Assembly (NCBI GenBank): GCA_016715995.1
Contig: JADJXF010000009.1
Span: 318,436 to 382,435 of the forward strand
Reading direction: 5' to 3'
Source: Flavobacteriales bacterium
GTDB taxonomy: Bacteria > Bacteroidota > Bacteroidia > Flavobacteriales_F > PHOS-HE28
Length of the DNA: 64,000 bases
Position numbers and translations under genes: made by a program. The notes below the pieces were generated by a model. It searched no databases, was not told where the DNA came from, and saw only the letters and a program-made list of their open reading frames with translations. Of this stretch, positions 16,062-57,251 are shown one piece after another. Every line of letters starts with the position of its first letter. The stretch's first letter is position 1.

Positions 16062-16081
16062 GATGATCTAGTTTTGGTTCG

Positions 16082-16468
16082 ATGAGCAAGCTTGGGATCA
16101 AGGGCAGCATTCCGGTGGACAAGGGGCGGGTGGAACTGAAGCTGTCCTTGTTGAAGTTCAAGGAGGACGACATCGTTTTCATCTACAGCCCGGCACTGGA
16201 CCTTACCGGCTATGGGAAGGACGGCCGCTCCGCTAAGCGTTCGTTCGAGATCACGCTAGAGGAATTCGTGAACTACACCACCAATAAAGGAACTCTGGAC
16301 AAGGAGTTGCGGCGGCTCGGTTGGACGGTCGGCGGGAGCAAGCGCTCACCGAAGTTCCAGCAACCCTACTTGGATGAATTGTTCAAGGCCCGACCCTATC
16401 TCGGCGAGATCTTCCGCGAGAAGGAGTTCCAGCGGTTTGATGAGGAGGTGATGTTCCCAGCAGCCTGA
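16082..16468 (+). CDS. HicB-like antitoxin (UPF0150 / RNase H-like fold)
   Basis: KFKEDDIVFIYSPALDLTGYGKDGRSAKRSFEITLEEFVNYT matches the HicB N-domain pattern (D-GY-v-sP-L-G--t-G-T-EEA). It lies immediately upstream of hicA with a 2-nt gap. Confidence 0.55.
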   Translation: MSKLGIKGSIPVDKGRVELKLSLLKFKEDDIVFIYSPALDLTGYGKDGRSAKRSFEITLEEFVNYTTNKGTLDKELRRLGWTVGGSKRSPKFQQPYLDELFKARPYLGEIFREKEFQRFDEEVMFPAA

Positions 16469-16470
16469 GC

Positions 16471-16704
16471 ATGTCTCCCGGCCTGCGGAACATACCGTTG
16501 CGCCGGTACCGGAAGTTCTTGGAGCAGCAGGGGTGCAAGTGCATTCGAACCAAAGGCGGCCATGAGCATTGGGCCAGGGCCGATCTGAACAGGCCGATCA
16601 CGCTCCAAAGCCACATCGACCCCGTGCCGGAGTTCATCGTGCGACAGCACCTCCGCTACCTTGGCGTGGACCTCGACGAGTTCGAGAAGTTGATGGGACG
16701 TTGA
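16471..16704 (+). CDS. hicA: HicA-family mRNA interferase toxin (YcfA-like)
   Basis: YRKFLEQQGCKCIRTKGGHEHWARADLNRPITLQSHIDPVPEFIVRQHLRYLGV, versus E. coli HicA FRRWLESQGV...GSNHLKLR...PRHPCDEIKEPLRKAILKQLGL. 77 aa. Confidence 0.75.
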   Translation: MSPGLRNIPLRRYRKFLEQQGCKCIRTKGGHEHWARADLNRPITLQSHIDPVPEFIVRQHLRYLGVDLDEFEKLMGR

Positions 16705-44143: not shown

Positions 44144-45109
44144 ATGAGCATCCCAACCGACGATGTGCGCAGCGTGGAGCTCTTCGGTGAGCGTTACCGC
44201 ACCCTGAAGCGCGAAGTGAACAAGGTCATCATCGGGCAGGACGCCGCCGTGGACCACGTCCTGCTGGGCATCTTCAGCCGGGGGCACTGCCTGCTGGTCG
44301 GTGTGCCAGGGTTGGCAAAGACGCTTTTGGTGAACACCGTGGCCAAGGCGCTGGGGCTCACCTTCAGCCGCATCCAGTTCACCCCGGACCTCATGCCCAG
44401 CGACATCATCGGTTCGGAGATCCTCGGCGAGGACCGTCGCTTCCGGTTCATCAAGGGGCCGCTCTTCGCCAACATCATCCTGGCCGATGAGATCAACCGG
44501 ACACCGCCCAAGACCCAGGCCGCTCTGCTGGAGGCGATGCAGGAACGCTCTGTCACCGCCGCCGGGCAGACCCTGCCGCTGCCTGAGCCCTTCTTCGTGC
44601 TGGCCACACAGAACCCCATCGAGCAGGAGGGAACCTATCCTTTGCCCGAGGCCCAGTTGGACCGCTTCATGTTCGACATCCGGGTGGATTACCCAAGCTT
44701 CAATGAAGAGTTGGCGGTAGTGAAAGCCACCACGAGCGATGCCCAAGCCGACGTGCAGCCGGTGTTGACCTCCGAGGAGATCCTGCACTACCAGCGGCTC
44801 GTCAGGCGTGTTCCCGTTGCGGACAATGTGCTCGAGTACGCGGTGCGGCTGGCAACCCGCACGCGGCCGGGTCAGTCAGGAACGCCAGCGATCATTGCCG
44901 ATCATGTGGCGTGGGGCGCTGGACCCCGGGCCTCGCAGTACTTGGTGATCGGCGCCAAGGCGCGCGCGCTGGCGCATGGCCGCTTCTCGCCGGACATCGC
45001 CGACGTGCAGGCTGTCGCACCGCCGATCCTCCGCCATCGCATCGTGCGCAACTACAAGGCGGAGGCCGAGGGAATCACCTCCGATCGCATCGTGGCCGAG
45101 TTGCTTTAG
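44144..45109 (+). CDS. MoxR-family AAA+ ATPase
   Basis: IIGQDAAVDHVLLGIFSRGHCLLVGVPGLAKT (Walker A) ... ILADEINRTPPKTQAALLEAMQE (Walker B/sensor). Confidence 0.9.
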   Translation: MSIPTDDVRSVELFGERYRTLKREVNKVIIGQDAAVDHVLLGIFSRGHCLLVGVPGLAKTLLVNTVAKALGLTFSRIQFTPDLMPSDIIGSEILGEDRRFRFIKGPLFANIILADEINRTPPKTQAALLEAMQERSVTAAGQTLPLPEPFFVLATQNPIEQEGTYPLPEAQLDRFMFDIRVDYPSFNEELAVVKATTSDAQADVQPVLTSEEILHYQRLVRRVPVADNVLEYAVRLATRTRPGQSGTPAIIADHVAWGAGPRASQYLVIGAKARALAHGRFSPDIADVQAVAPPILRHRIVRNYKAEAEGITSDRIVAELL

Positions 45110-45197
45110 CACGCTTTCGGCTGGCGCTGGTCAGCTGACTGCGCTCAAGTCGCATCCGGTGCGTGTTGCCATAGCTTTGGTGACTATTCCGCCCATC

Positions 45198-46013
45198 ATG
45201 ACGACATCATACGCGGCCAGGCCCTGCTCCATGCTGAGTGTCCTGTTAGGTTCCATGGCCTTCGCCCAGTTCCCGTTGGTGGACGTCAGCTTGGAACATG
45301 ATCAAGCCAACGACCAACTGAAGATCAGCCTTCGGGCCAATGACTTCGATTTCGGGGATATTGTGAGCAACATGGTCTTCACCGTCCGCTGGCTGGAATC
45401 CTCGCCAGCCACCCTGGGCTTCGGCACCAGCGAGTGGTGCCCATCACCCACCACGGCCTTGCCCTTGGCCCCATCTGCCATGGTTACACCAGGTAATGGA
45501 TTCAAGTATCGAACGTGGAACGCCATCGGCCTCGCTGCGCTTTCGGAGATCCAGGATAACGGCGGGTGCGGGCAGACCCTGCTAGCGGATACGTGGACGC
45601 AGGTCTTCACCATCGCGGTGAACAACGATCTGGGTGGCACGGTCTTCACGATCGCGGAAGACCAATACGCCATCGATAATAACCGAACGTTCTACGTGTC
45701 CTTGAATGGTCAGCCCAGCACGGGTAGCGTTTACACGTTCTCGACAATGGTGGCGCCAATCGCCCCGCAATCGCATCATGTCCTGTCCTTGTGGCCGAAT
45801 CCTTCGACTGGCCTGGTGATGGTGGATTGGAGCGCACACGCCCCAGCCATCATGGGCTTGGAAGTGCTCGATGCGACTGGACGTGTTGTGCGGAGATGGG
45901 GCGCCATTCCGCCACCGCGAACCCTAGACCTACAGGGCATTGGTGCCGGGGCTTATTACGTGCGAGCGATTGCTGGGGAAGAGGTATTCCAAGCACCCCT
46001 CGTCCTAGAGTGA
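45198..46013 (+). CDS. T9SS C-terminal-sorting-domain protein; its N-terminal domain is paralogous to the giant adhesin N-terminus
   Basis: Signal ...MLSVLLGSMAFAQ. VFTVRWLESSPATLGFGTSEWCPSP...YRTWNAIGL...GGCGQ...FYVSLNG parallels 50170-50540. C-terminus ...SLWPNPSTGLVMVDW...YYVRAIAGEEVFQAPLVLE. Confidence 0.75.
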   Translation: MTTSYAARPCSMLSVLLGSMAFAQFPLVDVSLEHDQANDQLKISLRANDFDFGDIVSNMVFTVRWLESSPATLGFGTSEWCPSPTTALPLAPSAMVTPGNGFKYRTWNAIGLAALSEIQDNGGCGQTLLADTWTQVFTIAVNNDLGGTVFTIAEDQYAIDNNRTFYVSLNGQPSTGSVYTFSTMVAPIAPQSHHVLSLWPNPSTGLVMVDWSAHAPAIMGLEVLDATGRVVRRWGAIPPPRTLDLQGIGAGAYYVRAIAGEEVFQAPLVLE

Positions 46014-47284
46014 TGGGAGGCCGTTCCAATCACCTTGGCTGGGTGCTCTTGGCCGGCCTGCTGCCGATGGCCAATGCCCGTGGTCAATTTTGGCAGGTCT
46101 TCGACATGGCCAATTCCGGTTTCCCCAGCAACACGGTGGTCGATATTGTCGTGGAGGCCAATGGTGATGCATGGGTCGCCACGGACTGGGGCTTATGTCG
46201 ACGCGAAGCAGGGGAGTGGAGCGTTCTCCAGACCTCGAACTCAGGACTCCCGGACAACTACTTGCGGTCGCTTGCCCTGGACCACGATGGGCGATTATGG
46301 GTTGGAACCTCGTTGGCTGGTGTGGCGGTCTATGACGGACAGGATTGGGTGGTTTACGACACCCAGAATTCACCCCTGCCGGATGACCAGGTCAACACGA
46401 TTCATGTGGACCACCAGGGTTGGGTCTGGCTCGGCACCGTTGGCGGATTGGCCTGCTTCACCGGCACCGAATGGCGCCTTTATGATTCCTCTCCAGCCAG
46501 CTTCAATGGTCGAATCCTGAATGGTGATCATGTCCTGGACATCGATACCCGGTCCGACGGGCTGGTGGTCTTGGGCATGCTGAATGGCGGCTTCCATTTC
46601 CTAACGGACACCTCCGTTCAGTATTTCACCACATTCAATTCAGGGTTCTTCGACAACACCCAACGTGCGGTTCTGCTCGATACCGTGGCCAATGAGCGCT
46701 GGCTCGCATGTCCGGCCGGTGGCCTCGTGCGCCAGATTGGCGACTGGTATGGCGGCACATGGTTCCAGTACACCTCTCTGAACTCCGATCTCCCCAGCAA
46801 TGCCCTGATGGATGTGGAGCGGGATGGTTCCGGCCGCCTTTGGTTGGCCGGTCAGGTCAGCGGCTTGATCCGCCGCGACCCGAATGACGCGTATGCTTCC
46901 TACTTGACATCGAATTCCGGGATTCCCGGCAATGAGCTGAATTGCGTCACGGTTGCCCCGGATGGCAGCATATGGGTGGGGACATTCATTGGCGGTGCTG
47001 GGCGGCTTGATGTGAGCACTGGAATCGGTTCAGCCGGACCCAGTAATCTGTCCATATCCCTTACTCCGGTGCCGAACGACGGGCATTTCAGGGTAGATGC
47101 CCCGTCCCACTCAAGAGTAGTTCGATGGGAGGTGATTGAGCCGCAAGGCCGGAATCTCCGTTCCGGAGCGACAGCCCACCTGAACGGATTGGAAGTGAAC
47201 CTCGGCGAGTGCGCTCCGGGTCTGTATTTCTTTCGGGCCGATGTGGACGGGAGTACAATTATCCTGCGGTTCGTGGTCCATTGA
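46013..47284 (+). CDS. beta-propeller (two-component-regulator-propeller-like) repeat protein with a T9SS C-terminal sorting domain
   Basis: Signal MGGRSNHLGWVLLAGLLPMANA. Repeated ...NSGLPDNYLRSLALDHDGRLWVGT.../...NSPLPDDQVNTIHVDHQGWVWLGT... blades. C-terminus ISLTPVPNDGHFRVD...GLYFFRADVDGSTIILRFVVH. Its ATG overlaps the upstream TGA. Confidence 0.75.
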   Translation: MGGRSNHLGWVLLAGLLPMANARGQFWQVFDMANSGFPSNTVVDIVVEANGDAWVATDWGLCRREAGEWSVLQTSNSGLPDNYLRSLALDHDGRLWVGTSLAGVAVYDGQDWVVYDTQNSPLPDDQVNTIHVDHQGWVWLGTVGGLACFTGTEWRLYDSSPASFNGRILNGDHVLDIDTRSDGLVVLGMLNGGFHFLTDTSVQYFTTFNSGFFDNTQRAVLLDTVANERWLACPAGGLVRQIGDWYGGTWFQYTSLNSDLPSNALMDVERDGSGRLWLAGQVSGLIRRDPNDAYASYLTSNSGIPGNELNCVTVAPDGSIWVGTFIGGAGRLDVSTGIGSAGPSNLSISLTPVPNDGHFRVDAPSHSRVVRWEVIEPQGRNLRSGATAHLNGLEVNLGECAPGLYFFRADVDGSTIILRFVVH

Positions 47285-47317: not shown

Positions 47318-49924
47318 ATGAAGCGAAACAACTACCCCAGCATCTCCTTGCCTCTGATCGCTAGGACTTTGTCAATCGCCGTGGCCCTTGGCTGGTTGCC
47401 TCTCGCGGCACGGCGCAATGCACGACGACCAATGCCACCGGCTGCCAATGCAGAACGTCCGGCCAGACGAACTGCGAGCTGCTACCGGACATCCAGATTT
47501 CGTGGTATGCGCTGGCGAACTACGCGAGTGGCCCGAACCAGTATGCGCAGAATGCCACGAGCAATGCGGGTCGCCTAAAGGTAAGTGGCAGCACCCCTAA
47601 CCAGGGCTATGGTCCTTTGGAGGCGCGTGGGGTCAACGCCCAACAGCAGCGGACCTTTATCTGCGGCTCGGACACCATTACGGTGAACAATCTGCCGAAC
47701 GACAACAACGGATTCACCTGCTCGAATGGATATGAGGCCAAGCAGAGGCTCTATCAGCGTGTGTATCGCAAAAGGTCGGCACGATGACCTACACGGAGGA
47801 GCTTGCGGCACCATGACCTACCATCCGACGCACAACCACTACCACGTAGATGACTGGACGACGATGACCTTGCGGATTCAGCAAGCAGGCGTTTCCGATC
47901 CGAGGCAGTGGCCCATCGTATCAACAGGTGCCAAGCTGGGGTTCTGCCTGATGGACCTCAGCACCTGTCCCAATAGCCCTGGGCATTGCCGTACCTCGCA
48001 GCTGTACAATCAGGGAACAGCGCTCAATTCATCGAGCAATTTTCCGAACTATGGATTAGGAATCGGGTATTCCTGTTCCGAGAATTTCCAAGGCATCAGC
48101 GCAGGCAAGACGGACATCTACGACGAAGGGCTCGATGGCATGTGGATCAACATGCTCCCAGGAGACCCGGGAATGCCCGTGCTCTGCAACGGGAACTATT
48201 GGATCGTTGCCGAGGTGGATCCGCGCAATGCCTGGCGGGAGGAGGATGAAGAGAACAACTATACCGCGATTCCCTTCACTGTGAGTTCGCAAAAGGCCGC
48301 AGGCAGCGGTGGTTCAGGGAGCATGCTCACGAACAAGCGCTCTCTCCTTGCGCCAGGAGAGACCATCACACTGACGGCAACGCCGGGCTTCAGCTACCTC
48401 TGGAGCACAGGTGCGACATCACGGTCGATTACGACCTCGACACCCGGAACCTACTCATGCACCGTAACGGCTCCTTGTGGATCCATTGCGACGCCGAGCA
48501 TCACGGTGAGTGTCTTGAGCGCTCCTGCTGCGCCGGTTGGGACGGGCACCACGGTGCTGACGGGCAACTCCGCGCAGATTTCCGCGACAGGCGCGAATGT
48601 CCGGTGGTTCGACGCGGCCTCGGGCGGCAGTCAGGTTGGGACGGGCAACGCATTCAACACGCCGGTGCTGACCAATACGACGTCCTACTGGGCGCAGAAT
48701 TTCAACGTGTCACCAGGAATCTCAGTGAACGCTGGCAAGGCTGACAATTCCGGTGGCGGAGGATACTTCAACGGTAAGCATTGGCTCTATTTCGACGCGT
48801 TCGAGCCCTTCAAGCTCCGATCCTTCAAGGTGTACGCCAACTCGTTCGGCAAGCGCCAGTTCGTTCTCCGCGATCAGCTCGGCAACCTCATCGCCGAGAA
48901 ATTCGTGGAGCTGCCATCGGGCATGAGCGTGGTCAACGTGGAGTGGGATGTACCTGCCGGGGTGCAGCACGCCATCACCGCCTTCGACGATAATAGCGAC
49001 GTGTTCCAGGACCTTTACCGGAACAATGCGGGCGTCTCTTATCCGTACACGATTGGCAGCGTCGGTTCCATCACCGGCTCCTCTGGCGGCCCCGGTGTCT
49101 ATTACTTCCTGTATGATTGGCTGGTGACGACCAATACGGTGGAGTCCGGCAGCACGCGCACCATGGTCACTGCCAACGTCACGGAAGGCGTTCTGGTGGA
49201 TGTGAAAGCCATCCTCGATGGTCCGTACAATTCAGGCACCGGCCTCATGAACGATGCACTTCGAGTGGCCGGTCTGCTCCCGACCGCCGAACCATACGCA
49301 GGTTTGGGCTTCACGCATGCCTCCAACGGCGGCGGTGAGACCCTCACCCCGGCGATGCTGCAGGCCACTGGTTCCGCCGCTCCCGTGGATTGGGTGCTGA
49401 TTGAGCTTCGCAATGCCGCGCAACCGAGCCAGGTTGTCGCTACGCGCAGCGCGGTGCTTACCCGAGCAGGGAACGTTGTTTCCGGCTCAGGTGGGCCGAT
49501 ACGGTTGGGCGCGCTGAATGGCAGCTACTATGTCGCCATTCGCCACCGGAATCATCTGGGCGTGATGACGGCCAGTGCCTTGAGCCTTGGTCAGACAAGT
49601 ACAGTCATCGATTTCAAGTCCGGTTCGACCGCGACTTGGGGTACGGATGCACGCCAAACGAACGGCTCCGTCATGACCATGTGGTCTGGCAATGTGGAGC
49701 GCAATAACAACTTGAAGTATGTGGGCGAGCAGAACGACCGGGACCCCATACTGCTGGCCGTTGGTGGTTCAGTGCCCACCAATACCGCGCAAGGCTACCT
49801 CTCGGCTGATGCCAACCTCGATGGGCTCGTTAAGTATGTTGGTGAACTGAATGACCGCGACCCCATCCTTCTGAACATCGGCGGCTCCGTGCCTACCAAT
49901 GTGCGTTTTGAACAACTGCCCTGA
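47318..49924 (+). CDS. lysyl-oxidase-like (LOX, copper amine oxidase) domain protein with Ig-like repeats and two dockerin-like C-terminal segments; the 5' region is frameshifted twice
   Basis: Signal in frame A (MKRNNYPSISLPLIARTLSIAVALGWLPLAA, 47318-). The LOX N-half is in frame B (CELLPDIQISWYALANY...AGRLKVSGSTPNQGYGPLE..., ending TGA 47785). The LOX core is back in frame A from 47726 (GTMTYHPTHNHYHVDDW...GAKLGFCLMDLSTC...NFPNYGLGIGYSC...MPVLCNGNYWIVAEVDP...EDEENN) and aligns to human LOX WEWHSCHQHYH...GHKASFCLED...DCQWIDITDV. The A4 run at 47770-47773 is the likely second shift site. C-terminus: two DANLDGLVKYVGELNDRDPILL dockerin-like loops. Confidence 0.6.
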
Positions 49925-51325
49925 TTCTCCAACTTGGCAGCCCCTGGCGGATTCCCTACGCTGACTTCCTGAACCATACCCCTCAACCAAAACCTGTGTC
50001 CATGCTGTTCAATTTTTCCCAAGCGTGCAAGCGCCTTTCCATCGCGCTGGCGATATCCACCTTCGCTGGTTCCGTCGCGCTGGCGCAATTGCCGACCAAC
50101 GTGGAAATCGATTTGGCTCCAGGTGTTGGAACCAACCAGTTGGATGTGCGGCTGAAGGCGAATGGCGCGTCATTCTCTGAGGTGATCAGCGGCCTCACGT
50201 TCACTATTCGATGGCCAGGCACATCTCCGGCTGGATTGGGTGTCTTCAATAGTGCATGGTGCCCATCTCCATCGCTGGCGCTCAATGTTGGAGGGTCTGC
50301 CCAGGTGACGGATGGAAGTTTTCACTACCGCACGTACACTTCCACCGGTACGGCTCAGATTGGGGAGACACAGAATAATTCAGGTTGCGGTGATTTTGGG
50401 CAGGTTTTGCCGGCAGGCACATGGATAACGATCGGCACCATTGGCATTTCAACCAACACCACGTGCACTCAGTTCCAGATTGTCAACGATGCATTCACAG
50501 GTGCGAACAATAGGAACTTCTTCGTTTCGCTGAATGGCGTTCAAGGACTTGCCGGTCCCATTGAGGGCAATCCGGTTTGCACGAGCAACACCGCCTGTGG
50601 CGTAACGATAGGGAGTATAGGCAGCAATGGGCCCATCTGTGTCGGATCCACATTGAACCTGACCGCTAGCGCCACGGGGACGGCATTGACGTATAGCTGG
50701 ATCGGACCGAACGGATTCACCTCCAATCTTCAGAATCCGAGCATAGTCGGTGCTACGAGTCTCGCCTCCGGTACTTACACGGTCACGGTGGCATCCAACG
50801 GGTGCCAGAGTAGGAGCCGGACGATTGATGTGGCGGTCACTACTCCGAATAACCCTGGTACTTTGAGTGGGGATCAGACCATTTGCGTGGGCGGCGGCAC
50901 CACATTCTTCAGCACTGTCACCGGAGGAAGCTGAGGACGCACGGGCAACACGCTTGCTGCCACGGTCGACCCTTTACCGGGGATATAGACCACCAGGGGG
51001 CCAGGTTCAACGCTGATTACGTACACGGTGACCGCGGTGCACCTTGACCGGCACACCTCAAGGGACTTTTGCCGCGCCGAGTGCGACCATCAATTACGCG
51101 GGTTCGCCCTATTGCAGCACTGCAGGAACAGTGAGTGTGACGCAGACCGGAACTTCCGGCGGGACCTATTCCGCCAACCCGGCCGGCTTGAGCATCAATG
51201 GCAGCACGGGTGCTGTGAATACCGGCACCAGCACGCCCGGCACTTACACGGTGACGTACGCCATTACTGGAACTGGCGGATGCGCTGATTTCGAGACCAC
51301 CGCGCAGATCACCATAACGGCTGCT

Positions 51326-53512
51326 CCGACGGCGGGCACCTTGAGCGGTACGCCTCAGGGGATCTGCGTGGGCGGCACGACGACCTACGCGATCAGCGGC
51401 AACAGCGCGACTGGCACCTGGGGCACGCAGGACGTCAACATAGCCACGGTGGTGAACGGGTTGGTGACGGGCGCTGGCCCTGGCACGACGAACATCACTT
51501 ACACGGTGGCAGGCACGGGCGGCTGCAACGCTGCGACGGCCACGCGGTCGGTGACGGTGACGGCGCCTCCGACGGCGGGCACCTTGAGCGGCACGCCTCA
51601 GGGCATCTGCGTGGGCGGCACGACGACCTACGCGATCAGCGGCAACAGCGCGACTGGCACCTGGGGCACGCAGGACCCCAACATAGCCACGGTGGTGAAC
51701 GGGTTGGTGACGGGCGCTGGCCCTGGCACGACGAACATCACTTACACGGTGGCAGGCACGGGCGGCTGCAACGCTGCGACGGCCACACGGTCGGTGACGG
51801 TGACCGCGCCCCCTGTAGCGGGCACGATCAGCGGTACGCCTCAGGGGATCTGCGTGGGCGGCACGACGACCTACGCGATCAGCGGCAACAGCGCGACGGG
51901 CACCTGGGGCCCGGATAACGCCTCGGTGGCCCCGGTGGTGAACGGGTTGGTGACGGGCCAGGCCCCGGCACGACGAACATCACTTACACGGTGGCGGGCA
52001 CGGGCGGCTGCGTAACGCTGCGACCGGCCACGCGGTCGGTGACGGTGACGGCGCCCCTATGGCGGGCACCTTGAGCGGCACGCCACAGGGCATCTGCGTG
52101 GGCGGCACGACGACATACGCGATCAGCGGCAACAGCGCGACGGGCACTTGGGGCACGGATAACGCCTCGGTGGCCACGGTGGTGAACGGCCTGGTGACGG
52201 GCCAGGGCCCGGGCACGACGAACATCACTTACACGGTGGCAGGCACGGGCGGCTGCAACGCTGCGACGGCCACACGGTCGGTGACGGTGACCGCGCCCCC
52301 TGTAGCGGGCACGATCAGCGGTACGCCTCAGGGGATCTGCGTGGGCGGCACGACGACCTACGCGATCAGCGGCAACAGCGCGACTGGCACCTGGGGCACG
52401 GATAACGCCTCGGTGGCCACGGTGGTGAACGGCCTGGTGACGGGCCAGGGCCCGGGCACGACGAACATCACCTACACGGTGGCGGGCACGGGCGGCTGCA
52501 ACGCTGCGACGGCCACGCGGTCGGTGACGGTGACGGCGCCTCCGACGGCGGGCACCTTGAGCGGCACGCCTCAGGGCATCTGCGTGGGCGGCACGACGAC
52601 ATACGCGATCAGCGGCAACAGCGCGACGGGCACTTGGGGCACGGATAACGCCTCGGTGGCCACGGTGGTGAACGGCCTGGTGACGGGCGCTGGCCCTGGC
52701 ACGACGAACATCACTTACACGGTGGCAGGCACGGGCGGCTGCAACGCTGCGACGGCCACACGGTCGGTGACGGTGACCGCGCCCCCACGGCGGGCACCTT
52801 GAGCGGTACGCCTCAGGGGATCTGCGTGGGCGGCACGACGACCTACGCGATCAGCGGCAACAGCGCGACTGGCACCTGGGGCACGCAGGACGTCAACATA
52901 GCCACGGTGGTGAACGGGGTGGTGACGGGCGCTGGCCCTGGCACGACGAACATCACTTACACGGTGGCAGGCACGGGCGGCTGCAACGCTGCGACGACCA
53001 CGCGTCGGTGACGGTGACGGCACCTCCACGGCAGGCACCTTGGCGGTACGCCGCAGGGCATCTGCGTGGGCGGCACGACGACTTACACGATCAGCGGCAA
53101 TAGCGCATCTGGCAGCTGGGGCACCCAGGACCCCTTGGTGGCCACGGTGGTTGGCGGCGTTGTGACGGGCCAAGGCCCGGGCACCACGAACATTACTTAC
53201 ACGGTGGCTGGCACGGGCGGTTGCAACGCTGCGACGGCCACGCGCTCGGTGACGGTGACGGCACCTCCCACGGCAGGGACGATCGCTGGTACCCCGCAGG
53301 GCATCTGCGTGGGCGGCACGACGACTTACACGATCAGCGGCAACAGCGCGACTGGCACCTGGGGCTCGCAGAACACTGCGGTGGCCACGGTGGTCGGTGG
53401 CGTTGTCACAGGCCAGGGCCCCGGCACGACGAACATCACCTACACGGTGGCTGGCACGGGCGGTTGCAACGCTGCGACGGCCACGCGGTCGGTGACGGTG
53501 ACGGCGAATCCT
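51326..53512 (+). repeat. nine tandem 243-bp repeats, each encoding an 81-aa BIG2-like Ig domain
   Basis: Unit: APPTAGTLSGTPQGICVGGTTTYAISGNSATGTWGTQDVNIATVVNGLVTGAGPGTTNITYTVAGTGGCNAATATRSVTVT. Units start at 51326, 51569, 51812, 52055, 52298, 52541, 52784, 53027 and 53270. They are over 90% identical, with scattered 1-3 nt indels. Confidence 0.9.
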
Positions 53513-53739
53513 GCGGCACCAACTCCTGATAGCTATGGCCCACTTTGCTCAACCGCCTCGCCTATCATCTTAGGCGGCAGTCCTTCCGGTGGTGTTTGGA
53601 CTGGTGTAGGAGTAAGCGGAACAGGTCCCTACACATTCAACCCTGCAGTTGGCACGCAACTGCTCACTTACACGATTACTGTTGGTGGGTGTAGCAATAG
53701 CGCTTCAACCACAGTGAACGTAGGTGTATGCGACTGCGC

Positions 53740-55800
53740 AGGCGTGATTAATGGCACCGCATTTATCGATGGCTGCAACAATTGCGTGGGTGGCACAACG
53801 GGTTTGGATCCATGCGGGAACGACTGCTTGGGAGTGCCTGGTGGCAATGCCCAGGTGGATGCCTGCGGCGTGTGCTACGCGAACGGCCCCGCCAACCCGC
53901 TATGGAACACCACCTGCGCGGACTGCCTTGGCGTTCCCAACGGCAATGCCCAAGTGGATGCCTGCGGCGTGTGCTACGCGAATGGTCCTGCCAACCCGCT
54001 ATGGAACACCACCTGCGCGGACTGCCTTGGCGTTCCCAATGGCAATGCCCAGGTGGACGCCTGCGGCGTGTGCTACGCGAACGGCCCTGCCAACCCGCTA
54101 TGGAACACCACCTGCGCGGACTGCCTTGGTGTTCCCAACGGCAATGCCCAGGTGGATGCCTGCGGCGTGTGCTACGCGAACGGTCCCGCCAATCCGCTTT
54201 GAACACCACCTGCGCGGACTGCCTTGGCGTTCCCAACGGAAATGCCCAGACAGATGCTTGCGGCGTGTGCTACGCGAACGGCCCTGCCAACCCGCTATTG
54301 AACACCACCTGTGCGGACTGCCTTGGCGTGCCTAACGGAACTGCCCAGACAGATGCTTGCGGCGTGTGCTACGCGAACGGCCCTGCCAACCCGCTTTGGA
54401 ACACGACCTGTGCGGACTGCCTTGGCGTGCCTAACGGAACTGCCCAGACAGATGCTTGCGGCGTGTGCTACGCGAACGGCCCTGCCAACCCGCTTTGGAA
54501 CACCACCTGCGCCGATTGCCTTGGCGTGCCCAACGGCACTGCCCAAACGGATGCTTGCGGCGTGTGCTACGCGAACGGTCCGGCTAACCCGCTATGGAAC
54601 ACGACTTGCGCCGATTGCTTGGGCGTACCCAACGGCACTGCCCAGACCGATGCTTGCGGGGTGTGCTATGCGAACGGTCCTGCCAACCCGCTTTGGAACT
54701 CCACCTGCACAGATTGCGCTGGGGTGGTGAATGGATTGGCCATTTATCGATAACTGCGAAGAGTGTGTTGGAGGAACTACGGGCTTGGATCCGTGCGATA
54801 ATGACTGCCTTGGTGTGCCAGGAGGCACGGCCCAAACAGATGCCTGCGGCGTGTGCTACGCGAACGGCCCTGGCAACCCGCTTTGGAACACGACCTGTGC
54901 GGACTGCCTTGGCGTGCCTAACGGAACTGCCCAGACAGATGCTTGCGGCGTGTGCTACGCGAACGGCCCGCACCCGCTGCACGACCTGTGCGGACTGCCT
55001 TGGCGTGCGTAACGGAACTGCCCAGACAGATACTTGCGGCGTTTGCGACGCGAACGGCCCTGCCAATACGCTTTGGAACACGACCTGTGCGGACTGCTGG
55101 CGTGCTAACGGAACTGCCCAGCAGATGCTTGCGGCGTGTGCTACGCAACGGCCCTGCCAACCCGCTTGGAACACCACCTGCGCGGATTGCCTTGGCGTTC
55201 CCAACGCCACTGCCCAAACGCACGCTCGCGGCGTGCGCTACGCGAACGGCCCGGCTAACCCGCTATGGAACACGACTTGCGCCGATTGCTTGGGCGTACC
55301 CAACGGCACTGCCCAGACCGTGCTTGCGGGGTGTGCTATGCGAACGGTCCTGCCACCGCTTTGGAACTCCACCTGCACGATTGCGCTGGGGTGGTGAATG
55401 GATTGGCATTTATCGATAACTGCGAAGAGTGTGTTGGAGGAACTACGGGCTTGGATCCGTGCGATAATGACTGCCTTGGTGTGCCAGGAGGCACGGCCCA
55501 AACAGATGCCTGCGGCGTGTGCTACGCGAACGGCCCTGCCAACCCGCTATGGAACACCACCTGCGCGGACTGCCTTGGCGTTCCCAACGGCAATGCCCAG
55601 GTGGATGCCTGCGGCGTGTGCTACGCGAACGGTCCTGCCAACCCGCTGTGGAACACCACCTGCGCGGACTGCCTTGGCGTTCCCAACGGCAATGCCCAGG
55701 TGGATGCCTGCAGCGTATGCTACGCGAACGGCCCTGCCAACCCGCTGTGGAACAGCACCTGCGCGGACTGCGAGGGTGCACCCAACGGTCCTGCTCAACC
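53740..55800 (+). repeat. about 20 tandem 99-bp repeats encoding a Cys-rich 33-aa module, organised into higher-order units each led by a longer module
   Basis: Unit TTCADCLGVPNG(N/T)AQ(V/T)DACGVCYANGPANPLWN. Longer lead modules GV(I/V)NG(T/L)AFIDNCEECVGGTTGLDPC(G/D)NDCLGVPGG..DACGVCYANGP occur at 53745, 54716 and 55384. There are many single-nt indels between 54180 and 55380. Confidence 0.85.
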
Positions 55801-57251
55801 CGGCACTCCTTGCGATGATGATGACGAGCTGACGGATAATGATACGTGGACTACAGGATGCGCATGCGAGGGCACCCCCATCGGCAACTGCACTGAGTTC
55901 CTGACCATCGAGATCCGTACGGATGTGAATGGTAGCCAGACTTCCTGGGAGGTCCGCGAGTTGGTCACCAACATCCTTGCTGCGAGCGGAGATGGATACG
56001 CGGATGACGCCGTTGTAACTGACGACATGTGCTTGGCAGAGGGCTGCTACCGACTGACGGTGTTCGATGCGGGCTTTGACGGTATCGCGGGCGGCGGGTA
56101 TATCCTACGCACCTCGGGGAATCCGGGCCAGCGCATCATCGACAACCGTGCGAACTTCAGCGCCGGCCAAGTGAGCGCAATCGCGAATGGCGAGGGCTTC
56201 TGCGTGCCATTGGGCATCAGCCGCTTGATCTTCACGAGCTGCGACAAGCTCGACTGGGTCAACAACCAGTTCATCGTCGCCAATGATGAAGCGGCGGTCA
56301 ACGCCGAATGGATTGTGGGAGGCGCGAATGGCGTGCAGGATACGAATACGGGCTATGAGTTCTGGTTCTTCAACCCGAACGGTGGGTATTCGTTCCGTCG
56401 GTTCCGCAGCCATGCGACATCTGATGGATACCCGGCTACTGGACCCACCCGCGCATGCCACACCAAGGTCAATACGTGGGCGGCGGCGAACCACATCCCA
56501 GCCTTCCAGTTGATGAACGTTCGCGTCCGAAGCCGCATCAATGGCGATTACAATCCCTGGGGTCCAGCGTGTCGCTTCAAGATCGATCCTGTTCGTGCAG
56601 CTTGCCCACTGACCAAATTGGAGGACATTCCGGGCAATTCCTTCTATAGCTGCAATGTGACCCGTGCCTGGGGACAGATGCTCTACTGCAAGAAGGTCAC
56701 GAATGCCACGCAGTACCAGTTCCGGTTCCGCAACGCGGAGCTGGTCACCCCTGTGGTTCGGACTCGGACAACATGGAACCTCCAGATGAACTGGACTCCA
56801 GCCTTGCCGAGCGGATCATACCAAGTTGATGTACGGGCATTCTTGAATGGACAGTGGTGCATCAGCGGTGCTGAATGGGGTGATGCCTGCATGGTCACCA
56901 TCACGGGATCGCCGGGCGCGTCCGATGGCCAGCAGAACCTGACCTTAGGGTCCGGACTAGCGATGGACGCGACCATGACCCTCAGCCCGAACCCGAATGG
57001 TGGTGATTGGATGCAATTGCATCTCAACGCGACGCAGGACGGTATCGAGAATGCCACTTTGGAGGTCTACGACTTGGTCGGTCAGCGCGTGATGACCACT
57101 CAGGTGCCGGTGAATGGCGGCCAGATCAACGGAGTGGTGGAACTGAGCAATTTAGCGAGCGGCACATACTTGGTGAACTTGGTCGCCGGCACGGAGCGGT
57201 ACACGCAACGACTGGTGATAAGTCGCTGATACATGAGAGCAGATTGAGGCT

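Follow-up and report, generated by a model that had tools for sequence, protein, structure and literature searches.

A survey by Grau-Bove et al. (2015; PMC4448552) recorded lysyl oxidase (LOX) domains in several phyla, among them Bacteroidetes, Actinobacteria, and Proteobacteria, and noted that the majority of prokaryotic LOX proteins consist of a single domain. HTU-LOX of Haloterrigena turkmenica was characterized as a copper-dependent amine oxidase that is sensitive to β-aminopropionitrile (BAPN), accepts a broad range of substrates, and has a cryptic native role (PMC6452851). Prokaryotic LOX proteins are otherwise known from sequence surveys, with native roles that are still termed cryptic. 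We analyzed a 64,000-nt stretch (the window, in its whole length) of contig JADJXF010000009.1 from a Flavobacteriales bacterium, in which a gene on the forward strand (47318-49924) carries a LOX-type catalytic core. We consider it quite probable that this locus is the ortholog of a conserved exported multidomain protein of about 865 residues that belongs to an uncultured Flavobacteriales lineage and contains a LOX-type catalytic domain. The gene is a further member of the known LOX family and is probably intact in the living organism, and its reading frame in the assembly is broken at three places.

The LOX-type catalytic domain

The longest uninterrupted part of the gene is an open reading frame (ORF) of 732 residues at 47726-49924 that ends in a TGA stop at 49922-49924 and lies in phase 2, which we define as the frame of position 47318 (phase 1 is the frame of position 47320). 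With the translation stitched across the frames as a query, more than 1000 database homologues were retrieved, demonstrating that the locus belongs to a large protein family. Nearly all of the best 120 homologues are full-length proteins of 840 to 880 residues, each encoded in one uninterrupted frame, and the closest (P0001) is 89% identical across 100% of its length. Intact forms of the ortholog from uncultured Flavobacteriales are typically 850 to 870 residues long, and some homologues already bear the name "lysyl oxidase family protein." A scan of species-representative genomes placed the nearest relative at 79%, and look-ups of the exact sequences of the 732-residue ORF and of the GAPDH neighbor matched no recorded protein. 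The domains of the protein follow one another as a Sec signal peptide, the LOX domain, two Ig-like modules, a middle domain, and a C-terminal module of about 250 residues. Among the homologues and in the genome scan, this complete architecture was seen only in uncultured Flavobacteriales.

The LOX catalytic core is encoded in phase 2 at 47807-48304. The first-pass annotation of this DNA had proposed a LOX domain and had named in advance the lack of a significant match to the Pfam family PF01186 as grounds for rejecting it. PF01186 matched its stitched protein significantly, at 35.1 bits against a gathering cut-off of 20.4 bits; the in-frame ORF alone scored 30.5 bits and a translation repaired across three frames scored 35.7 bits. 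The match spans profile positions 79 to 191 of 204 in two stretches. All of the motifs that the annotation had quoted are present at their positions, including GTMTYHPTHNHYH at 47807-47845, GAKLGFC at 47927-47947, TDIY at 48110-48121, and EDEENN at 48242-48259.

Profile-profile comparison by hhalign of the family alignment with the catalytic domain of LOXL2, using a LOXL2 sequence checked against PDB 5ZE3, gave a probability of 91.9% and an E value of 6.9e-7. The alignment pairs HNHYH with HRHYH, GAKLGFCLMD with GHKASFCLED, and GISAGKTDIY with GITMGCWDMY, which bears out the proposed correspondence of the histidine triad, the lysine, and the tyrosine. We take the aligned LOXL2 residues to be the copper ligands His626, His628, and His630 and the Lys653 and Tyr689 that form the lysyl tyrosylquinone (LTQ) cofactor. 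In the window, the copper histidines of the H-N-H-Y-H motif are encoded at 47831-47833, 47837-47839, and 47843-47845, the cofactor lysine (in GAKLGFCLMD) at 47933-47935, and the cofactor tyrosine (in TDIY) at 48119-48121. These residues are conserved in the family: among 118 homologues, H169, H172, H174, H176, and Y268 never vary and K206 is kept in at least 90%, and the cofactor lysine is invariant in a set of 24 sequences.

Structure comparison demonstrated the LOX fold. When the model of the LOX domain was searched with Foldseek, the only two matches at E≤0.001 were LOXL2 chains. Searches of PDB chains by single-sequence phmmer and by hmmsearch with the family profile did not find LOXL2, so that the link to LOXL2 was detected only by profile-profile and structure comparisons.

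These results suggest that the LOX domain would be an active copper- and LTQ-dependent amine oxidase. Outside the cytoplasm, it may, by analogy with characterized LOX enzymes, convert primary amines, either peptidyl-lysine or free amines, to aldehydes, with H2O2 and ammonia as by-products. The Ig-like and C-terminal modules may position or anchor the enzyme. Several observations weigh against this reading. Both the Pfam and the hhalign matches are restricted to the C-terminal 60% of the domain, and the N-terminal 131 residues alone had no Pfam match at E≤10. The model of the LOX domain has a predicted local distance difference test (pLDDT) score of 73.8 and is weakest near the Lys and Tyr loops, with values under 50 for residues 178-183 and 225-233 of the model. 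In the literature, we found no assayed enzyme for this bacterial LOX subfamily, and the sole prokaryotic LOX that we found characterized is archaeal (PMC6452851).

A protein that keeps the LOX fold without amine oxidase function, for example as a metal-binding or adhesive module, would fit the distance from LOXL2: the window domain is only 16 to 19% identical to that of LOXL2 (5ZE3), has an insert of about 60 residues ahead of the His motif and an extra Cys motif at its N terminus, and has other residues in place of several LOXL2 cysteines. We regard this explanation as unlikely, as the residues kept across the 118 homologues are precisely the catalytic ones (HxHxH, Lys, and Tyr) and these are present even in a distant version of the domain from Dyadobacter.

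Frame breaks in the 5′ part of the gene

The first-pass annotation had described the 5′ part of the gene as frameshifted twice. Nucleotide alignment with related loci (L001 and also L002), taking the contig that encodes P0001 as the reference relative, instead located three changes, at about 47405-47415, 47770-47775, and 47800-47806, each with a net loss of one base. Upstream of the first of these, 47318-47410 encodes the Sec signal peptide MKRNNYPSISLPLIARTLSIAVALGWLPLAA, start codon included. The ATG at 47318 opens this signal-peptide-like sequence in the same phase as the ORF at 47726-49924, in agreement with the earlier statement that the signal peptide is in the frame of the core. Homologues have equivalent N termini that end in A/G-Q-C, which is not a lipobox. 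A signal peptidase I site followed by Gln is common in Bacteroidota, and the A/G-Q-C end fits this pattern; judging from the sequence, the signal peptide is probably cleaved before Gln-Cys.

At the junction of the signal peptide and the mature protein, the first break (47405-47415) moves the coding frame from phase 2 to phase 1 with a net change of −1; its exact site is bounded only to 47365-47415. Phase 1 then reads ...TAQCTTTNAT, as the homologues do, and encodes the N-terminal half of the catalytic region at 47416-47772, with the four-Cys motif QCTTTNATGCQCRTSGQTNC, LPDIQISW...GRLKVSGSTPNQG, and the insert of about 60 residues relative to LOXL2. This phase 1 stretch, AQCTTTNATGCQC...CELLPDIQISWYA...RLYQRVYRK, is open without a start codon of its own and is 90% identical to P0001. 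The earlier placement of the upstream half of the domain in another frame was correct, since CELLPDIQISWYA...AGRLKVSGSTPNQG lies in the frame of 47320, and the accompanying comparison with the PDLVPD...NQGT region of LOX found no sequence-profile support. An hhalign comparison of the N-terminal part with the N-terminal 74 residues of LOXL2 gave a probability of 0.2%. The structural alignments to LOXL2 are long (175 to 249 positions), and part of the N-terminal region may, in the model, superpose on the LOX fold.

The second break (47770-47775; phase 1 to phase 0, net −1) coincides with an A4 homopolymer, which had been noted earlier and is indeed present at 47770-47773. The window reads cgcAAAAGgtc where the closest relative reads cggAAGgtc, and an AAC codon is absent a few bases downstream. 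Ten codons in phase 0 follow at 47775-47804 and encode VGTMTYTEEL, matching VGNTMSYTEEL or TGNTMTYTEEL of intact homologues; the two-shift path of the first-pass annotation omits these conserved codons. The third break (47800-47806; phase 0 to phase 2, net −1) has GCGGC in the window and GCGGGC, with one more G, in the closest relative. Intact homologues read through the whole region in a single frame (...YRKVGNTMSYTEELAGTMTYHPTH, also given as ...RLYQRVYRKVGNTMSYTEELAGTMTYHPTHNHYH), whereas the window divides it among phase 1 (YRK), phase 0 (VGTMTYTEEL), and phase 2 (GTMTYHPTH). Two of the three breaks fall at short homopolymers, the A4 run and a run of three Gs reduced to two.

To either side of these breaks, the gene bears the mark of strong purifying selection. 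The ratio of nonsynonymous to synonymous substitution rates (dN/dS) relative to the closest relative was 0.043 for the out-of-frame segment and 0.057 for the remainder, with synonymous divergence near saturation. Since dN/dS is equally low in the shifted part, this part remained under the same strong selection through nearly the entire period since divergence. A ratio of 0.04 in an out-of-frame segment implies that the breaks are either very recent or, more likely, consensus errors. On balance, we favor reading the three breaks as errors of consensus or assembly rather than as real inactivation of the gene.

A 15-nt imperfect direct repeat lies in this region, with copies ggcacgatgacctac (47778-47792) and ggcaccatgacctac (47807-47821) that are identical at 14 of 15 positions and start 29 nt apart. 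The repeat encodes a conserved GTMTY...GTMTY pair and spans from the second break to just past the third. It could have misled a consensus or polishing step.

A less probable but serious alternative is that the gene is a real pseudogene of very recent origin, which may have been lost along with the broken giant gene further downstream; the strain would then be shedding a surface-protein cluster. The downstream gene (49996-57229) encodes a giant Ig-repeat cargo protein of the type IX secretion system (T9SS), with 81-residue units and a type A sorting signal. It is a single ORF of 1959 residues in the complete genome CP129489.1 (L002, 12661-18540), and it is split across at least seven frame segments in the window. 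Its tandem arrays, 243 nt × 9 (51317-53506) and 99 nt × 15.8 (53843-55376), carry 1 to 4% indels. Most of its breaks fall inside these arrays, where consensus errors are expected.

Three points speak for the pseudogene and weigh against assembly error. The breaks are concentrated in these two adjoining genes, and every other gene in the window that could be checked appears intact. Errors would then not be evenly distributed, and three of them within 400 bases of nonrepetitive sequence form an odd cluster. Furthermore, the first break of the giant gene (near 51065) shows up as a gap of 8 bases in the comparison with the closest relative and not as a homopolymer slip. A different picture emerges from the LOX gene itself, where dN/dS is 0.04 to 0.06 in all segments, the correct frames contain no in-frame stops or other decay, and all three changes are net losses of a single base, two of them at homopolymers.

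A similar break also occurs in a public metagenome-assembled genome (MAG), JADJOG010000006.1 (L013, 9554-12117), where the LOX ortholog shifts frame at about residue 705. The names of its contigs (tig...) presumably point to a long-read assembly. Other genes of this locus, and a further related locus (L014), gave truncated matches. The broken ortholog, together with the truncated matches at both loci, suggests that frame breaks may be common in assemblies of this lineage. Within the window, by contrast, the idea that the sequence is riddled with split genes was discarded: a plot of G+C content at third codon positions by frame and Pfam scans identified ten suspicious short ORFs as separate small genes with complete domains. 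The breaks in the LOX gene should not be annotated as gene loss without read support.

We also considered programmed recoding or a phase-variation switch as the source of the frame changes, an idea to which the A4 run at one break lends some color. Three separate shifts would be required, at runs of merely 2 to 4 bases, and the more than 1000 homologues read the same codons in a single frame. We dropped programmed frameshifting on these grounds and consider recoding or phase variation of this gene scarcely credible.

The accessory domains and the C-terminal module

Two Ig-like modules follow the LOX core at 48323-48709, as had been claimed. The second is Pfam Ig_7 ("CHU_C associated"; PF19081), which scored 39.6 to 42.8 bits against a cut-off of 27.3. 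Matches to the first were weak (Ig_2 at 13.4 to 13.8 bits and PDB Ig domains at an E value of 7e-5), and the family profile matches PDB Ig domains of LRIG1 and CD22. The middle domain (48710-49132; about 140 residues) is conserved across the family, with motifs that include KHWLYFDAFEPF and YYFLYDW, and had no Pfam match at E≤10.

The C-terminal module comprises, over its first 170 residues, a β-sandwich at 49190-49690, predicted by AlphaFold2 with pLDDT of about 80 to 95 at model residues 20-187, and a tail at 49691-49924 that consists of the 39-residue repeats NVERNNNLKYVGEQNDRDPILLAVGGSVPTN and DANLDGLVKYVGELNDRDPILLNIGGSVPTN, an invariant terminal EQLP, and the stop codon. The duplicated unit has the pattern KY(V/T)GxxNDRDPIL...GGxVPTN (KYVGExNDRDPIL...GGSVPTN in the window), and the NDRD, Y, and G of the tail and the terminal LP are invariant across the family. 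For the last 75 residues, pLDDT is 31 to 39, and two short helices are predicted. No Pfam (E≤10), NCBIfam, or PDB sequence match to the module was detected.

The tail had been described in the first-pass annotation as dockerin-like with two DxNxDG loops. Only one exact DxNxDG is present (DANLDG, 49808-49825), and the other copy reads NVERNNN. The dockerin assignment itself failed to gain support, as the 247 C-terminal residues had no match to Pfam dockerin (PF00404) at E≤10, and the likeness is best treated as an unproven resemblance. If the tail were a true dockerin that binds a cohesin-bearing scaffold at the cell surface, this would account for its duplicated loop and short-helix motif with one DxNxDG and for the finding that 4 of the 12 best Foldseek matches to the module are dyads of an X module and a dockerin (4WI0_B, 4U3S_B, 2B59_B, and 4FL4).

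These matches to X-module and type II dockerin dyads were among the best obtained, and they are nonsignificant (E values of 0.076 to 0.53). The Dockerin_1 model is silent here even at E≤10, yet it scores 21.9 bits on a LOX paralog of a related MAG (L010). Alignment of the tail by hhalign with a clostridial dockerin gave a probability of 0.9% over 11 columns, and the pLDDT of the tail is low. Finally, position 12 of the calcium loop is not acidic in the 39-residue repeat; this position is Gly, and acidic residues appear at least three positions later. We consider a true dockerin improbable, even more so than a nonenzymatic LOX domain.

With a profile of the C-terminal module, 13,148 clusters had a representative that matched at E≤0.001, and 3,771 of these matched at E≤1e-30. 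Of the 150 best matches, 146 extend to the last residue of the protein, in proteins of 255 to 3228 residues. The module is combined with M36 and S8 peptidases, a lipase-like domain with BACON and PKD, GEVED, β-helix, and DUF5122 with LamG, among other partner domains. The module terminates an M36 peptidase and a second LOX paralog (L010, 13-1806) in a related MAG, as well as giant proteins of Thiothrix eikelboomii and of a Saprospiraceae MAG. ORFs that bear the module lie at L010 13-1806 and 3997-8166, L032 11-8947 and 9782-13192, and L030 17-10825.

In its extreme C-terminal position on diverse secreted enzymes and adhesins, the module resembles the T9SS C-terminal domains (CTDs) TIGR04183 (type A) and TIGR04131 (type B), and genes that bear it adjoin type A CTD cargo. 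It differs from them in length, at about 250 residues compared with about 70 to 100, and in sequence, to which they have no match. Indeed, the first-pass annotation was right that the LOX protein has no T9SS CTD: with TIGR04183, TIGR04131, PF18962, and PF13585 as the models considered, neither the window ORF nor P0001 had an NCBIfam match at E≤0.1, and no Pfam match was found at E≤10. The module also differs from T9SS CTDs in its occurrence in Thiothrix, a Gammaproteobacterium. To our knowledge, Thiothrix has no T9SS.

Being strictly C-terminal, promiscuous, and unannotated on secreted proteins, the module behaves like an anchoring or sorting domain. We tentatively suggest, as a possibility well short of likely, that it is a hitherto undescribed and very abundant domain for C-terminal anchoring or sorting, present in Flavobacteriales, Saprospiraceae, and Thiothrix, which may dock cargo to a surface scaffold or sheath much as an X-module-dockerin dyad does. 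If so, the LOX protein would be one among many enzymes displayed through the module. Present in over 13,000 protein clusters and covered by no Pfam or NCBIfam model, the module will probably prove more widely useful than the LOX assignment.

The gene neighborhood and known LOX proteins

The genes around the LOX gene are, in order, a rotamase gene, two further genes, and genes for a MoxR ATPase, a 271-residue cargo protein, a β-propeller protein, the LOX protein, and the giant Ig-repeat protein, with genes for GAPDH and RpoD on the opposite strand. This order is retained in at least nine loci, including loci in which the LOX protein is only 56 to 60% identical, which demonstrates that the arrangement is conserved. 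The first-pass annotation had placed the gene in a T9SS cargo island. The T9SS cargo neighbors are real: TIGR04183 matches the end of 55265-57226 (38.3 bits) and, slightly under the 23-bit cut-off, a part of 44976-46010 (22.7 bits). The setting is not an island, however, but a stable conserved chromosomal neighborhood. Directly upstream of the LOX gene, 46085-47281 encodes the β-propeller protein, which adjoins LOX in all of the related loci; its match to the T9SS component PorZ is subthreshold (58.9 bits, with a cut-off of 260), and its type A sorting domain is weak.

The giant neighbor was considered as a lysine-rich substrate of the LOX protein and set aside, as its intact ortholog (L002) contains 0.3% Lys, with 19% Thr and 12% Gly. 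Either the giant protein is no target of LOX, or it is depleted of just the residue on which the neighboring enzyme would act. Elsewhere in the window, a short ORF at 16444-16701 weakly matches the HicA toxin (23.1 bits; the cut-off is 27) and overlaps the end of an ORF at 16067-16465, which could be its antitoxin partner.

The first-pass annotation had called LOX-like domains rare in bacteria. The more than 1000 homologues argue otherwise, as do the occurrence of the same LOX subtype in cultured Dyadobacter, Pedobacter, and Rudanella and the report of Bacteroidetes LOX proteins in 2015 (PMC4448552). Beyond that survey, we found nothing in the literature specific to LOX in Flavobacteria or Bacteroidetes. 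The family described here brings together many bacterial LOX proteins that are well conserved and syntenic, retain their catalytic residues, have an unusual multimodule build, and lie beside surface-cargo genes. It offers a reasonable entry to LOX function on the bacterial surface, whether in protein cross-linking, amine scavenging, or peroxide production.

The N-terminal four-Cys motif of the window protein is additional to what is found in animal LOX and LOXL1-4, and the disulfide pattern is different. SRCR domains or a propeptide accompany the catalytic domain in animal LOX proteins, whereas Ig-like and unassigned bacterial modules do so here. No collagen or elastin substrate is known in the bacterial host.

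Among LOX-like proteins of cultured Cytophagales and Sphingobacteriales, a 459-residue protein of Dyadobacter koreensis DSM 19938 (L048) has the same LOX subtype and insert, with CELLPDL, HNHYHVDDW, GSKVSYCLFD, and QGISVGGYDTY, and scores 38.3 bits against PF01186. In this protein, a P-domain (PF01483) precedes the LOX domain, and the Ig modules and the C-terminal module are absent; its identity is 30 to 36%. Similar LOX-domain matches at 30 to 36% identity occur in Pedobacter, Rudanella, Runella, and others. The second LOX paralog noted above, encoded by Flavobacteriales MAG SJ163 (L010, ORF 13-1806), shares the C-terminal module ending in EQLP and the same gene neighborhood. Its LOX domain is nearer to the canonical type (PF01186 at 65.3 bits; GCYDIYGSGTTCNWIDITDV), and it has a dockerin-like segment in mid-protein (Dockerin_1 at 21.9 bits, cut-off 22.9) that the window protein lacks.

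The activity of HTU-LOX is, by analogy, the one that the window protein would be expected to have. In contrast to typical single-domain prokaryotic LOX proteins (PMC4448552), the window family combines its LOX domain with other parts in a protein of five modules and about 865 residues.

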